Positions 2,709-19,854 are shown, counted from the first letter of the stretch. The stretch is 24,000 bases of DNA from an uncultured Candidatus Bathyarchaeia archaeon (GCA_964637155.1 CAZWWD010000002.1:29497-53496), one strand, 5' to 3'. The notes: a model not told the origin generated them from the letters alone. A program made the numbers and translations.

Positions 2709-3251
2709 TTATTGTTTTTGGAGGCTTTCAAGAGTTTCCCTGAAAATATTGAATGTTTCATCATCGTATAAGCAGAAGATTATTCTTTTTATATTTGTTC
2801 CACTCCTAGCGTAAGAAATAGCCGTTGGAAGCATTGTTTCAGCACACCTCTTTTTAGGCAATCCAAAGTAGCCTGTTGAAATGGCTGGAAAGGCTATACT
2901 GGATACATTATTTTGTTCGGCGAGTTTTAAGCTGTTCAGTGTTGCCTCTCTCAGCTTTCTTTCTTCGTCTCCCTCCCCATAAATGGGGCCAACAGCATGT
3001 ATCACGTATTTGGCTTTTAGATTTCCGCCGCTAGTTATAACAGCTCCGCCCACCGGTATAGGCCCTCTCTCAGAGACTATTCTGTCACATTCATCCTGTA
3101 TTTTTTGGCCTCCTTTCCTTCTGATTGCGCCTGCAACTCCACCGCCCATCTTAAGCATTTTATTGGCAGCATTAACTATGCAGTCAACTTGAAGTTCTGT
3201 TATGTCGCCTTTAACAAGCTCAATTAATGTTTCACCAACCTTAATTTGCAT
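2709..3251 (-). CDS. Macro-domain protein (Af1521-like ADP-ribose binding / O-acetyl-ADP-ribose deacetylase family)
   Basis: The translation contains GDITELQVDCIVNAAN...GGGVAGAI...VIHAVGP...SIAFPAISTGYFG, the hallmark macro-domain motifs. I prefer the ATG at 3251 as the start. The ORF track extends to TTG at 3266. Confidence 0.85.
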   Translation of the reverse strand: MQIKVGETLIELVKGDITELQVDCIVNAANKMLKMGGGVAGAIRRKGGQKIQDECDRIVSERGPIPVGGAVITSGGNLKAKYVIHAVGPIYGEGDEERKLREATLNSLKLAEQNNVSSIAFPAISTGYFGLPKKRCAETMLPTAISYARSGTNIKRIIFCLYDDETFNIFRETLESLQKQ

Positions 3252-3313
3252 GGATTGCGTCACCAAAAATACTTGTAGAAAAAGCTAATTATTTAAGGTT
3301 TCATTAAAAATTC

Positions 3314-13469: not shown

Positions 13470-13721
13470 TTATTTGAATGATCTTAGAAAGTTTTCCAGC
13501 CTTTCTAATCTCATGTTAGTCGCATTTAAGGCTTTTTGCAATTCGCTCAATTGATTCTTAAGAATATTTATTTCACTCTGTAGACCCTCAATTCGATTCT
13601 CGATCTTCTTTATGTCCTCAAGCGAAGCAACATCATAACCTTCAACTACACCTCTAATAACAACCTTATGGGAACGGTATGAGGGTTCTTTTCCTTCTTT
13701 AGTCACGGACATGAAAAACAT
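13470..13721 (-). CDS. Small (83 aa) coiled-coil protein, function unknown
   Basis: AAGGAG lies 4 nt (TGTG) before the ATG at 13721, while the track start TTG at 13751 is less likely. The C-terminal ~45 aa form a heptad-like Leu/Ile zipper (LEDIKKIENRIEGLQSEINILKNQLSELQKALNATNMRLERLENFL). It is preceded by a short beta-like KVVIRGVVEG. Confidence 0.5.
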   Translation of the reverse strand: MFFMSVTKEGKEPSYRSHKVVIRGVVEGYDVASLEDIKKIENRIEGLQSEINILKNQLSELQKALNATNMRLERLENFLRSFK

Positions 13722-13830
13722 CACACTCCTTAATAAAATACAGAAGAGCAATAGACAATAAATAATTTTTGGCTATCAGAAATAAGCGAATGAAAACTTT
13801 ATTAGCATGTAACATTTCTTTTTAGGTATT

Positions 13831-13899
13831 TATGGCGGGTGAGTGGGGGCCCACCTCCACCCGTTCCGCCATATAAACCCCGGTGTAGGAGGTGGATGA
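13831..13899 (+). promoter_or_regulatory. GC-rich structured 5' leader with an anti-SD / SD alternative pairing, upstream of the QueT-like gene (candidate riboswitch or RNA thermometer)
   Basis: TATGGCGG (13831-13838) is perfectly complementary to CCGCCATA (13866-13873). Inner pairings are GGGTG/CACCC and GTGG/CCAC. CCACCTCC (13851-13858) is the exact reverse complement of the SD GGAGGTGG (13888-13895), which lies 4 nt before ATG 13900. By my count, 29 of the 37 nt in 13834-13870 are G+C, within an AT-rich spacer. Confidence 0.45.
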
Positions 13900-14391
13900 A
13901 TGAAGTTTAGTAGTAAAGAGCTAGCATTAACTGCGATTTTCGCCGCAATGTATGCTATTGGCGTTATTTTCTTGGCGCCTATAAGCTTCGGGATCTATCA
14001 AGTTAGGATCGCTGATGCCTTATTGCCCTTATCAATTATTTTCGGTTTCCCAGCGGTTATCGGCTTAAGCTTGGGCTGCCTTATTGCAAATATTTATGGC
14101 AACCTATCGATCATCGATATTTTTGGTGGGGCGATTGCAAATTTTGTAGCCTGCGCTCTAGCATGGTTTATTGGCAGAAATGGAGTTACGCGTAGATTTA
14201 TAGGCTGTCTTATTGAAACCGCCGTCATAACCATAATAGTTGGAGGATATCTGTCAATTATTTTCGAGGTGCCCGTTGAGGTTAGCTTACTTGGAGTTTT
14301 CATAGGTTCTCTAATAGCAATTAACATTCTAGGCTTCGCACTTTTAGAGGGATTACTTCGAAGCGGCATAGCGGAAAAATATAGAGCCTGA
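13900..14391 (+). CDS. queT: QueT-family (7-deazaguanine/queuosine-precursor) ECF-type S-component-like membrane protein
   Basis: The 163-aa protein is very hydrophobic, with about 5 TM segments. LAPISFGIYQVRIADALLPL and IDIFGGAIANFVA resemble the QueT (PF06177) signature as I remember it (SFG..Q.RI.EAL; D...G). A strong SD is present. Confidence 0.6.
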   Translation: MKFSSKELALTAIFAAMYAIGVIFLAPISFGIYQVRIADALLPLSIIFGFPAVIGLSLGCLIANIYGNLSIIDIFGGAIANFVACALAWFIGRNGVTRRFIGCLIETAVITIIVGGYLSIIFEVPVEVSLLGVFIGSLIAINILGFALLEGLLRSGIAEKYRA

Positions 14392-16269: not shown

Positions 16270-19200
16270 TTATTCGTTTGCGCTTCCCTTCATAATGCTT
16301 TTTATTTCATTCTCCATTGATTTAAGAACATCTTGATAGTAGATCTGGCCGTTTTCTATGGCGTCTATTGTCTCTTCAAGATTTCTGGTAAGTTCCTCTG
16401 AGACTAGCGATTTAAAGTTCTTTGAGAGGTATCCATAGACTGCTCGTCCAAGTTTTGTGCTGAATACCATTTTATTCTTTTCAATTATGTATCTCCTCTT
16501 TAGTAGTATGCTAATTATTTTTGAGTAGGTGCTTGGTCTTCCAATACCTTTCTCTTTCATGAGCGCTATTAGATCACCCTCACGATAGGGTCTTACCAGT
16601 GACACACGCCTAACCCTCATACTGATAACCTTGTATTCTCCCTCCCTAACCTCCTTTTCAAGTCTAATCGTCGGATTCACCATTAAAAAGCCTCGCTCAA
16701 TAAATTTCACAGTTCTGCTCTGCTTGGCCTCTGAATCATTTACCCTAAGATTGAACTCCTGTACAACGGCTTTAGCTTCACTCATTTGGCTAGCAATAAA
16801 CCTTCTGAATATCATATCGTAGAGTTTCAGATGGTCGGCGCTGAGCTTTTGAGGTATCCTTATGACGCCGGAGGAAAGATAGAACCGCAGTTGCCTAACA
16901 TTTAAGGGTTTAGTCGGTCTTATGCATTCGTGTGCCCCTTCCCTTCTGTATCCTCTAGGCTTAAATAGATCGGGATAACTCTCTTCCAAAAAGCGTTTTG
17001 CAACCTCCATACCCGTTGTTGAAACGGTTGTTGAATCAGTTCTATGGTAGGTTATTAATCCAGATTCGAAAAGCATCTGCGCTAGACTCATCGTGTATCC
17101 AACTGAGAAGCCTAATTTTTGGGCGGCATCTCTAAGCATGCTATCAGTTGTATAAGGCGGTGGCGGATAGATGGTCTCCTCTTTAAAGGTCACGTTATCG
17201 ATTAGTGCAGTTAATTTTCCATCCTTAAACTTTTCTTTTAGCTCATCAACGTTCGGCAGATTTACAAGTCTGAATGATGAACCATCTTCTAATTGTATTT
17301 CAGCCACCGGAACCTTTTTCTTTAGTTCCTCCATACGCTCTATAACCCAGCCTAAAACGGGGGTCTGAACTCTGCCAGCTGAGAGAGTTTTCATCTTAAA
17401 TTTTTCCCAGAGCTTTCTACTTAATTCGAACCCAACCCATCTGTCTTCAATTCTTCTGACAACTTGAGCTTGAACGAATGAAAGTTTAATGCTTCTCGGC
17501 TCCAATAGAGCTTTTCTCAGGGCTCTACGTGTAACTTCGTGAAATTCAAGTCTCTCAACGTCCTCGCAGTATGGCTTAACAATAGCGTATATGTCGTATC
17601 CTATTTTCTCGCCTTCAGCATCCGGATCAGTTGCAATAAATACTTTATTTACTTCAACAGCTAACTTTCTGAGCAACTCAACAACCTCTCTCTTTGAGCG
17701 AATATTTTTTGAACCACATGCTGGGCACTCATCTCGATCAGTAAATTGTTCACCGCAATTACTGCATCTTCTTATATCCGTATAAATCGGGACGTAATAT
17801 CCGTTCTCTTTTAGAACCCCATGAAATCCGCCTTCTGTTGTCAAGTCAAATATGTGTCCACCAGACGCTATTATGTTAAGAATTAGCTGCCCGCTCGCCA
17901 CCTCATAGACTGTGAAACCGTTTATGGTTCTCCTAGCTGGTCTGCCGAAGAAATACGCTATCGCCCTAGCTTTTGTAGGAGATTCAACAATTATAAGCGC
18001 TGATCTAATAATGTCTACGGCCTCCACGCTGAATTCTCCTTTACGTATTCTTTTAATGATCTCTCTGTCTCCATCAACTTGCTTAAGTTCTTCCAGGGCT
18101 CTTTCAATAGTATATTCATTAAATTCTTCATCCATTGCGAGCTGAATTCTCTTACTTAGTCCATAGAATGCCTTTTCATCATCAACCAAAATTATTGATA
18201 AGCCGCGGCTTATTCCCATAGCATAGAATCTTGATGATCTACCAGAGGCTTGTATATATCCATCAACATCAGGTATGATAAGCACGTATTCTTTTCCTTC
18301 AATTTTTACATCAACATCTAATCTCTCAGTTATCTTTCTGAAGTCCACGTCCTCCATTATTCTAACTAGAAGCTTTCTAGCTTCTCTGACAACACGTAGA
18401 ACATGACCCGCGAAACCTTCAAGCTCAATTTTCTTTTCATCAGCTTCTCTGATTCTTTCAATTAGCTCTTTATTGACTGGCACAATCTTGGATAAGGCTG
18501 ATAGTATTGGGGCTGCTTCTTTAAAGAGTTTATTTTCGAATAAGGGTGATAGAGCCTTAAGAAGAGTGAGTATTTTTTGTGGATTACATTCATCAACTCC
18601 AACCCTTATTTCTCTTCTAGGCACACCAGCGAAGACTACATATCTGATCGTTTCGGGAAGATCTAAACCTCTAGCCAACGGACTTCTATTGCTGGCAACC
18701 CCCGCTAAAACAGCATATTCGCCATTAATAAATTTCTCCAGCATTTTTGGATTCATTCTTTCGTAGACGAAGGTTTCTATTCCAGCTTCTTTCAATGATT
18801 CTGCAATTTCTTTAGCGTATTCTATACCTTTAACTTGTGGAACAAAAACCAGACATCCTGGACCATGTCTCTTGATTATTTCCACAGTTTCCCTTTTTAT
18901 GTCACCTTTGGATTTAATGAAGAGATTTGCGATGTTTCTAACAAATTCCGGGCTAAAGCCCGGTTCAAAACCGAATAGCTGCCTAAATACTCTTATGCGC
19001 TTTGTTCTCTTCCCTCTTAATGTTGCGCCTGAAACAACTAGAACCCTATTATGTCTTGGTTGCGTTAGCTCTGTAGATTTATTTGTATTTGCATTAGATT
19101 TTCCACCGCTTAATATTTTCTCAATGTCCTCTGGGCTGAAGCCCATTAGGATTACAACTTTATCTATATTCTTAGGTGATTTCAGGAAGGAATCAACATC

Positions 19201-19854
19201 ATCAACAAATATGAAATCAAACTTAATGTTCTTGATTAAATCGAATTTATTGTAAAGAAATCTATCGGTGGTTATTAGGATGGAGAAATCTTGGTTTGTG
19301 ATGCGCTCAAGTGTTTCTTTAATCTGTTTCCTTCTCATCGTGGAATAGTATCCTATAACTATTGGGCTCGGCATACCTTTTTCAGCCATTATCCTTAGGA
19401 AAATGGAGGCTTTTTCCAGTAGATGCTCAACTAGGAGACTTGTCGGCACAATAATATAGCTCTTTCTACCCTTTCTGGCCAAATACAGCGCCATCATAAG
19501 TCCGAAAAGAGTTTTGCCGATGCCTGTCGGAGCAACTATTGAAAAGCTCCGTCCCATCAAAACGCGTTTAGACCAAACCTCTTGGAGAGCCCAAGGTCTA
19601 GAACCCACAAGCGAACTGAAAAATTTGGAGAAATTTTTTAGCTCAGACTCTATCTCCAGAAATCTTGCATATTCACCAATTCTTCCTTTCCTAATTAGTT
19701 CTCGGTAAATCTTTTCCTTATCTATTAAGGGTGTTGGAAGACATTTGCTACAAACCCCTGAGCTTAGTAATTCCTGATCGCTAATGTCGCCTCCGCAGTT
19801 TGGGCACATCCCACGATATATTGCCCTTAAACTTTCAAGTGCGGCTTTCACCAT
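16270..19854 (-). CDS. rgy: Reverse gyrase
   Basis: The protein has an N-terminal Zn finger (CPNCGG...CSKC), an SF2 helicase module (APTGIGKT, DDVD) and a second Zn finger (CSNCG..CPACG). It also has a type IA topoisomerase TOPRIM/core (LIIVESPTKA, DPDAEGE, ITYHRTDS). Total length is 1194 aa. Confidence 0.95.
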   Translation of the reverse strand: MVKAALESLRAIYRGMCPNCGGDISDQELLSSGVCSKCLPTPLIDKEKIYRELIRKGRIGEYARFLEIESELKNFSKFFSSLVGSRPWALQEVWSKRVLMGRSFSIVAPTGIGKTLFGLMMALYLARKGRKSYIIVPTSLLVEHLLEKASIFLRIMAEKGMPSPIVIGYYSTMRRKQIKETLERITNQDFSILITTDRFLYNKFDLIKNIKFDFIFVDDVDSFLKSPKNIDKVVILMGFSPEDIEKILSGGKSNANTNKSTELTQPRHNRVLVVSGATLRGKRTKRIRVFRQLFGFEPGFSPEFVRNIANLFIKSKGDIKRETVEIIKRHGPGCLVFVPQVKGIEYAKEIAESLKEAGIETFVYERMNPKMLEKFINGEYAVLAGVASNRSPLARGLDLPETIRYVVFAGVPRREIRVGVDECNPQKILTLLKALSPLFENKLFKEAAPILSALSKIVPVNKELIERIREADEKKIELEGFAGHVLRVVREARKLLVRIMEDVDFRKITERLDVDVKIEGKEYVLIIPDVDGYIQASGRSSRFYAMGISRGLSIILVDDEKAFYGLSKRIQLAMDEEFNEYTIERALEELKQVDGDREIIKRIRKGEFSVEAVDIIRSALIIVESPTKARAIAYFFGRPARRTINGFTVYEVASGQLILNIIASGGHIFDLTTEGGFHGVLKENGYYVPIYTDIRRCSNCGEQFTDRDECPACGSKNIRSKREVVELLRKLAVEVNKVFIATDPDAEGEKIGYDIYAIVKPYCEDVERLEFHEVTRRALRKALLEPRSIKLSFVQAQVVRRIEDRWVGFELSRKLWEKFKMKTLSAGRVQTPVLGWVIERMEELKKKVPVAEIQLEDGSSFRLVNLPNVDELKEKFKDGKLTALIDNVTFKEETIYPPPPYTTDSMLRDAAQKLGFSVGYTMSLAQMLFESGLITYHRTDSTTVSTTGMEVAKRFLEESYPDLFKPRGYRREGAHECIRPTKPLNVRQLRFYLSSGVIRIPQKLSADHLKLYDMIFRRFIASQMSEAKAVVQEFNLRVNDSEAKQSRTVKFIERGFLMVNPTIRLEKEVREGEYKVISMRVRRVSLVRPYREGDLIALMKEKGIGRPSTYSKIISILLKRRYIIEKNKMVFSTKLGRAVYGYLSKNFKSLVSEELTRNLEETIDAIENGQIYYQDVLKSMENEIKSIMKGSANE

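Follow-up and report, generated by a model that had tools for sequence, protein, structure and literature searches.

A conserved two-state leader of QueT-family transporter genes in Bathyarchaeia, a candidate archaeal riboswitch

Bacterial queT genes are a standard target of the preQ1-I, preQ1-II and preQ1-III riboswitches (PMC11625349); does the GC-rich leader of a QueT-family gene in an archaeon represent a regulatory element of a comparable kind? The question is raised by a stretch of 24,000 nucleotides (nt), here called the window, from an uncultured Candidatus Bathyarchaeia archaeon (GCA_964637155.1, CAZWWD010000002.1:29497-53496), in which a transporter gene of the QueT family is preceded by a leader element that, across the leaders compared here, measures ~62–70 nt. 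A preliminary description proposed that an anti-Shine-Dalgarno (anti-SD) segment of this leader can pair either within a 5' hairpin or with the Shine-Dalgarno (SD) sequence of QueT, and put the transcribed leader forward as a candidate new archaeal riboswitch, with an RNA thermometer and a protein-binding site as alternatives. Comparison with related leaders supports the two-way pairing and the candidacy, and renders the two alternatives less likely. We are highly confident that the leader is a regulatory RNA and, with appreciably less assurance, lean toward its being a riboswitch. A 2017 census of archaeal riboswitches comprises the thiamine pyrophosphate and fluoride classes, with rare flavin mononucleotide, Mg2+-I and guanidine-II representatives (PMC5473149), and a 2024 review of the three preQ1 classes lists no archaeal member and never mentions archaea (PMC11625349). 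We found no archaeal preQ1 or preQ0 riboswitch, and no riboswitch of Bathyarchaeia, in the literature outside subscription journals; the leader motif itself is absent from Rfam matches and from the searchable literature.

The open reading frame (ORF) downstream of the leader matches PF06177 with 95.7 bits (E 3.9e-27), well above the cut-off of 33.7, over profile positions 1-138 of 141, with no NCBIfam model matching, and the gene is QueT as proposed, encoding a putative queuosine-precursor transporter. It has 515 homologues, named QueT of Bathyarchaeia in the sources, and a second QueT subfamily of 1365 proteins is 33–34% identical to the window protein by BLASTP, the QueT homologues found in all amounting to about 1,900 proteins. 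The window has a GC content of 39.6%, and positions 13834-13870, in which a recount agrees on 29 G+C among 37 nt, are the sole stretch of 37 nt in the 24 kb to reach 26 G+C or more, the unique GC-rich island of the preliminary description. All of the complementarities listed there can be read directly from the sequence: exact reverse complementarity holds between TATGGCGG (13831-38) and CCGCCATA (13866-73) and likewise between CCACCTCC (13851-58) and GGAGGTGG (13888-95), with the SD ending 4 nt 5' of the ATG at 13900. The 5' hairpin (13828-13876) has a predicted folding energy of -26.2 kcal/mol (z = -3.86), with one of 200 shuffles folding equally well. The folding of the whole leader taken alone is unremarkable (z = -1.6); it is the comparative evidence that is decisive for the leader being more than a product of chance.

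A QueT alignment scanned against species-representative genomes yielded 80 loci, and the 140 nt upstream of each were read. Fifty of the loci carry a leader like that of the window (group 1), 20 carry a second type (group 2), five a third (group 3) and five none of these, so that the conserved, covarying element anticipated on orthologous QueT genes was found at 50 of the 80. The group-1 layout is GGCGG-GUGAGUGG-(loop)-CCUCC(C)-ACCCGUU-CCGCC-AUAUAAA-CCCCGG-NGUA-(G)GGAGGUG, followed after 5 to 8 nt by the start codon. The same leader is found on two metagenomic contigs (L100 and L197), which are the only genuine instances among 120 stretches retrieved with the pattern ACCCG..CGC..AAYCCCGG, too loose a search term, and six contigs of the second QueT subfamily (L201-L206) likewise bear it. 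A covariance model, R1, was trained on 53 leaders, its matches to those 53 being true by construction. In the window and the 50 loci it finds one copy per locus, at 51–97 bits, directly 5' of QueT and always on the QueT strand; a copy at 70–75 bits is present in eight further loci, six of which (L201-L206) are outside the training alignment. Elsewhere in the 440 kb around these QueT genes nothing scores above 18 bits, and a scan of viral contigs gave three chance matches, none of them fitting the covariance model. The leader core is conserved at 91.5% nucleotide identity, compared with a mean amino acid identity of 58.6% for QueT, and among the 200 protein pairs that diverge most, identity falls to 42% in the protein and to 88% in the leader. 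In this sample the three leader types appear confined to Bathyarchaeia. The homologues that bear none of them are L051, L062 (Methanomethylicia), L063, L068 (Terraquivivens) and L079. Two QueT paralogues, each with its own group-1 leader, occur in one genome (L066 and L072, MFD02248.bin.2.124), and a second such pair is formed by L010 and L012 (binchicken_co25_94).

The structure of the element was evaluated on a 53-sequence alignment (A2), to which the following counts and column numbers refer. Helix P1 (columns 5-9/38-42) is 98.5% paired and shows compensatory changes in two of its five pairs, from G-C to C-G in 11 leaders (about 4 independent switches on the QueT tree) and from G-C to A-U in three; in the window it is lengthened to UAUGGCGG/CCGCCAUA. 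Enclosed by P1, an inner hairpin pairs GUGGGGG (13843-49) with CCUCCAC (13854-60); it is 96% paired, includes one compensation of U-A to G-C, and is recovered independently by RNAalifold, which adds G10·U37 and G12-C33 (in window numbering G13839-U13865, a G·U pair in 53 of 53 leaders, and G13841-C13862, GC in 51 and UA in one). The preliminary description had sited GGGTG/CACCC and GTGG/CCAC correctly, and its register-shifted pairing of them did not hold: the pair 13838/13861 (columns 9-32) is broken in all 11 leaders with a C-G top pair in P1, and the shifted helix scores no better than shuffles. Another candidate pairing, CGGGU:ACCCG, was rejected, being broken by GGCGC-type leaders, which compensate within P1.

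Pairing in the anti-SD:SD helix reaches 95.7%, compared with 47–58% in slid controls, and six of its eight pairs have changed on both strands. When partners were permuted, the cognate duplexes came out stronger in all 2000 permutations. In 49 of 50 leaders the two segments agree in form, CCUCC with GGAGG or CCUCCC with GGGAGG, and switches between these forms number about 11 on the neighbor-joining QueT tree, a rough figure as the tree is approximate; pairing is also kept in the rare variants UUCCGA/UCGGAA, CCUCU/AGAGG, UCCUCC/GGAGGA and CCACCUCC/GGAGGUGG. The length of the 5' G-run tracks that of the C-run in the anti-SD, and the predicted strengths of the hairpin and of the anti-SD:SD helix are correlated (r = 0.89). 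As nucleotides 13854-58 (columns 25-29) are used by both the inner hairpin and the SD helix, the two are mutually exclusive. The proposed competition of two folds for the anti-SD is borne out, both helices being conserved, covarying and sharing nucleotides, and the leader is shown, at the level of comparative sequence analysis, to have two states, one with the SD free and one with it paired.

Outside the helices supported by covariation, about 20 nucleotides vary little or not at all: G10, U11, A30, C31-C33, G34, U37, A48-50, C52-C54, G56, G57, G60 and U61. Conservation is 100% for C31, C32, G34 and U37 and 98% for A30 and C33; in the tail, a pyrimidine (Y51) is followed by C52 and C53, which like G56 and G57 are conserved at 100%, and by C54 at 98%. 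Unexplained constraint of this extent is typical of ligand pockets. Within the set, CCCG (13860-63) can pair with CCGG (13880-83) as G-C, C·C, C-G and C-G, giving three invariant pairs; a core helix of this kind is compatible with the data, as is, equally, a three-pair register without the mismatch. A divergent group-1 leader (L050:2433-2507) carries G12U, G14A, C33A and C54U together with the anti-SD CCUCU and the SD AGAGG. It is the only leader that turns the C·C into a Watson-Crick A-U pair, and G12U at the same time keeps the hairpin-state pair 12-33, a hint from this single sequence that suggests that position 33 swaps partners between the states. The positions of a CCCC:GGGGG pseudoknot, proposed in the preliminary description, are invariant, and covariation speaks neither for nor against it. 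Both the predicted minimum-free-energy (MFE) structure of the window leader at 37–60 °C and the RNAalifold consensus show local pairing of the invariant CCCC with G residues of the SD (13878-13892), which could be a third, weak SD-masking option compatible with the 5' hairpin state.

A further indication comes from the group-2 leaders (20 loci, alignment A3), which lie ~60 nt 5' of QueT in L028, L030, L031, L033, L034, L036-L043, L046, L047, L052, L054, L055, L060 and L061 and read GGUAG-UUU-CCG-UAUAUAAC-CUACC-UUAAAAAAC-CCGG(GU)UGA; an example is L030:2451-2500. They belong to Bathyarchaeia from peat, soil and estuary, precede orthologous QueT genes, and show every hallmark of the preQ1-I riboswitch, among them the C that precedes the P1 3' strand. 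In its own right, the group-2 leader would be the first preQ1-I-like element found in Archaea. With group 1 they share the host class, the orthologous gene, the layout P1(5 bp)-...-P1'-[A/U]UAAAAA-C-CCGG and the tail motif (AAAAAACCCGG), and the CCG of the P1 loop can pair with CGG of the tail. They differ from group 1 in being short (~45 nt) and AT-rich, in having UUU as L1 and an L2 (UAUAUAAC) that ends in the canonical C, and in having no anti-anti-SD strand, the SD GGUGA directly overlapping P2. Group-3 leaders, conserved among five hot-spring metagenome-assembled genomes (MAGs; L048, L049, L053, L056 and L058, positions about 2395-2500), are ~110 nt long. Their predicted structure comprises the hairpin GGCGGG-UUGAGCU-CCGCC, a middle stem in two parts and, on the 3' side, a hairpin in which GCCUCCGC pairs with GUGGGGGU, the SD.

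The group-1 leader presents the generic features expected of a riboswitch, namely a conserved, apparently structured 5' untranslated region (UTR), association with one gene family and predicted mutually exclusive helices that control the SD. We propose that in the ON state the anti-SD, located in the P1 loop, would pair with the upstream G-run to form one long 5' hairpin, leaving the SD free, and that in the OFF state it would pair with the SD ~35 nt downstream, producing an H-type pseudoknot on P1 with the SD masked. The SD-paired state would be the ligand-bound state, because a substrate can be expected to repress its own importer, because the layout parallels that of preQ1-I (features from PMC10622847), and because the group-2 leaders on orthologous genes combine the preQ1-I hallmarks with the same P1'-A-rich-CCCGG tail. 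The invariant nucleotides at the junction (G10, U11, ACCCG-UU, AAA-YCCCGG and CCCG:CCGG with its C·C) would form a preQ1-I-like ligand pocket, with the A-rich linker running along P1. A ligand at the P1/P2 junction would nucleate the core helix and bring the SD beside the anti-SD, whereupon the anti-SD:SD helix would zip up coaxially on the core, oust the 5' G-run and turn translation off. On balance, though by no great measure, we favor the view that the leader acts as a cis-acting translational OFF-riboswitch of the queT mRNA for a 7-deazaguanine base. The ligand is probably preQ0, or alternatively preQ1; preQ0 is favored because archaea insert it into tRNA to make archaeosine (PMC5372724).

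Several observations weigh against this interpretation. Part of the complementarity between anti-SD and SD is expected in any case, both mirroring the 3' end of 16S rRNA, and the G- and C-rich runs permit other pairings, for example of CCCC with the G residues of the SD or of L1. The putative pocket is invariant, and covariation is consequently silent on the core helix and its register. L2 is UU, with U in 53 of 53 leaders at column 37 and in 96% at column 36, so the specificity C of preQ1-I is absent; moreover, the known preQ1-I L1 has 2–3 nt, whereas that of the leader has at least 8 and includes the competing strand, and the element is about twice as large, which speaks against a simple identification with preQ1-I. 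No 7-deazaguanine genes adjoin QueT in the window or the loci examined, and the neighborhood therefore gives no clue to the ligand. The distribution of the motif was judged on QueT-flanking DNA. Nearest-neighbor energies computed for 37 °C without pseudoknot terms strongly favor the hairpin (-24.2 kcal/mol) over the anti-SD:SD helix (-12.1 kcal/mol); this modeled preference would fit an OFF switch that needs its ligand, but is not evidence for one.

Other explanations have to be measured against the same data. Unpaired conserved nucleotides are equally expected of a protein-binding site, and with few riboswitches known in archaea (PMC5473149), the leader could be a translational operator at which an RNA-binding regulator stabilizes one of the two folds via the hairpin and the tail. 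However, no candidate regulator gene is linked to QueT, the kink-turn signature recognized by L7Ae is absent (the internal loop sets GUGA opposite CCGUU, with a 3' strand lacking GA), the architecture resembles a ligand-binding pseudoknot, and the group-2 leaders point to direct metabolite sensing; in our assessment such an operator is improbable. We assign a similarly low probability to a riboswitch that senses neither preQ0 nor preQ1 but a different ligand, such as another purine-like base. What speaks for it is the UU of L2 in place of the preQ1-I specificity cytosine, along with the precedent of purine riboswitches, whose specificity is switched when the pairing position changes from C to U. 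On the other hand, orthologous QueT proteins (~60% identity) with a canonical-C leader argue for the same transported compound, and the invariant C residues at the junction (13862 and 13879-13881) could recognize the face of a guanine-like base.

A ligand-independent RNA thermometer or tuner, in which the competing helices set QueT translation by temperature, would account for the SD-masking helix and could use the conserved mismatches to tune melting. The predicted accessibility of the SD rises from ~0.02 at 37 °C to 0.7–0.9 at 85 °C, and the window encodes a reverse gyrase (16270-19854, minus strand; TIGR01054, 1280 bits), which is a mark of thermophiles and on sequence grounds identifies the organism as a (hyper)thermophile. 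Nevertheless, the ~20 invariant nucleotides without a supported helix and the 91.5% identity of leader cores exceed the needs of a melting helix, the constraint spans genes only ~34% identical in protein, and the element is tied to one gene family whose orthologues elsewhere bear a preQ1-I-like leader. Moreover, group-1 leaders are present in MAGs of the SPRUCE and MFD projects, whose habitats we take to be peat and soil, and a thermometer is an unlikely answer. Least probable is a constitutive structural leader that does not switch and serves mRNA stability or a fixed low level of translation: a stable 5'-terminal hairpin can protect mRNA, and the hairpin is retained in the predicted MFE structure at every temperature tried, but the upkeep of an exclusive second helix through repeated concerted changes, and the invariant single-stranded tail AAAYCCCGG, would go unexplained.

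The features of the leader are collected in Table 1. The TTTATTA noted earlier at 13798-13804 was read directly, and the view that a TATA-like box places the transcription start site (TSS) at the base of the hairpin is upheld by comparison. Of 53 leaders, 23 have an exact TTWAWA hexamer that begins 30–36 nt 5' of P1; most others, the window among them, have near-matches, usually after GAAA or GGAA. The distance from TATA box to TSS is well established in archaea, and on this basis we infer a TSS at about 13826-13831, a few nt before P1. A box resembling the transcription factor B recognition element (BRE) and TATA element at this distance in most loci implies that the leader begins essentially at the 5' end of the mRNA. 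The hairpin was also considered as a terminator of the upstream gene and rejected in that role: the upstream gene of the window is divergent, no T-run follows the hairpin, and the promoter box lies between them. That gene (13470-13751, minus strand) is a 93-amino-acid ORF with only weak coiled-coil-type Pfam matches, and its promoter must share an 80-nt spacer with that of QueT.

Table 1. Elements of the QueT leader and the gene downstream, in window positions
Feature	Positions	Strand	Basis or remarks
BRE/TATA-like promoter, GAAAAC-TTTATTA	13792..13804	+	Sequence and comparison of 53 leaders
P1 5' strand	13831..13838	+	Core GGCGG 13834-38; UAU 13831-33 is an extension peculiar to the window
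GUGA, start of loop L1	13839..13842	+	G13839 and U13840 invariant (per-column conservation)
Anti-anti-SD G-run GUGGGGG, inner-hairpin 5' strand	13843..13849	+	Partner 13854-13860
Anti-SD CCACCUCC	13851..13858	+	Common to both competing helices
ACCCGUU, nearly invariant	13859..13865	+	Proposed core P2 5' strand CCCG 13860-63 and L2 UU 13864-65
P1 3' strand	13866..13873	+	Core CCGCC 13866-70
A-rich linker L3, AUAUAAA	13871..13877	+	Three invariant A's, columns 48-50
CCCCGG tail motif, invariant	13878..13883	+	Proposed core P2 3' strand
Linker UGUA	13884..13887	+	G and U near-invariant (columns 60-61, 96–98% conserved)
Shine-Dalgarno GGAGGUGG	13888..13895	+	Partner 13851-58
QueT-family transporter gene (energy-coupling factor S component), the putatively regulated gene	13900..14391	+	PF06177

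From P1 to the SD the element spans 62 nt in the window, and L1 is 8–11 nt long across the leaders. Because the start codon position is UUG or GUG in most leaders, initiation plausibly leans on a strong SD. Two leaders have ACG where others have ATG, GTG or TTG (L002:2498-2500 and L003:2498-2500), which may reflect a sequencing error or a start codon that is unusual or shifted. At most loci QueT is monocistronic, and its neighbors include PolB, macro-domain and glycosyltransferase genes and small ORFs with no assigned function. A macro-domain gene lies directly 3' of QueT in two group-1 loci (L064:3025-3555 and L078:3057-3581); the one in the window (2709-3266, minus strand) is 10 kb from QueT, and the association may be a coincidence.

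If the group-1 leader is a riboswitch, it would be the first of its kind in Archaea, constituting either a class of its own or a preQ1-type variant that has diverged strongly. A more specific proposal, to which we would give slightly less than an even chance, is that it constitutes a fourth structural class of preQ0/preQ1 riboswitch, widespread in Bathyarchaeia, that would have been derived from a preQ1-I-like pseudoknot and would combine a different ligand-reading nucleotide with a three-strand SD switch (anti-anti-SD, anti-SD and SD) in the aptamer loop. That nucleotide could be an invariant C at the L3/P2 junction or reside at the C·C site within P2. Under this proposal, and counting the preQ1-I-like group-2 leader and the 110-nt group-3 leader, one archaeal class would have evolved or kept three distinct RNA sensors on orthologous QueT genes. 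Bathyarchaeia are among the most abundant archaeal groups of sediments. A riboswitch of this kind would extend the known aptamer folds for 7-deazaguanines by a new one, establish that riboswitches which sequester the SD are in use in archaea and provide a direct handle on preQ0 salvage for archaeosine; being compact, GC-rich and found also in a genome with reverse gyrase, it might be adaptable to synthetic biology in thermophiles.

How does the leader compare with known RNA elements? Rfam searches returned no family for the whole window at the gathering score or for 13740-13930 at E <= 10, nor at either setting for 10 of the loci or for the group-2 and group-3 leaders. The same scan at E <= 10 misses a validated type III preQ1-I riboswitch 5' of yhhQ in Escherichia coli K-12 (L207:14170-14215, within a 191-nt stretch), and because this positive control is missed, such negatives are weak for tiny pseudoknots. 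With the ROSE and fourU thermometers the leader shares an SD paired with an upstream complementary segment of the 5' UTR. Those thermometers are plain hairpins, hardly conserved beyond the helix, whereas the leader is conserved outside its own helices as well, is tied to one gene family and gave no Rfam match; no SD-masking thermometer is known to be restricted to a single gene family.

Like the leader, preQ1-II (RF01054) is located 5' of queT, has the whole SD in a pseudoknot helix, is larger than class I and contains an extra hairpin. In preQ1-II this hairpin, P4, belongs to the bound fold and is placed in the 3' linker, whereas in the leader it occupies L1 as a competitor of the SD helix, the linker 13871-13887 containing no hairpin. 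Neither sequence nor covariance-model similarity to RF01054 was detected in 13740-13930 at E <= 10, and preQ1-II is restricted to Bacillota (PMC11625349). The preQ1-III class (RF02680, also with no match in 13740-13930 at E <= 10) shares the position 5' of queT and a separate anti-SD:SD pairing as expression platform, but is a ~100-nt HLout pseudoknot with a platform far from the pocket (PMC11625349), compared with the ~65-nt, H-type leader.

The closest counterpart is preQ1-I (RF00522), represented by type II of T. tengcongensis and type III of E. coli yhhQ. The preliminary description considered the leader to be unlike any of the three preQ1 classes. It has no Rfam match and lacks the specificity C, but in its architecture, with a P2 of the CCG:CGG type, it does resemble preQ1-I. 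The known class is bacterial, its aptamer is ~30–36 nt long, and its specificity C (C15/C17, the last nucleotide of L2) is 97% conserved, whereas the leader is archaeal and has a composite P2 that would consist of the CCCG:CCGG core and a full SD helix of 6–8 bp. Both nonetheless follow the logic of an H-type pseudoknot, with a P1 of 5 bp, a U at the start of L1 and an A-rich L3 with at least three conserved A's directly before the P2 3' strand (PMC10622847). In both, P2 would form between the P1 loop and the 3' tail and overlap the SD, the loop-tail SD helix of the leader being supported by covariation, and the apparent outcome is the same, translational control of a queuosine-precursor transporter (PMC10622847, PMC11625349).

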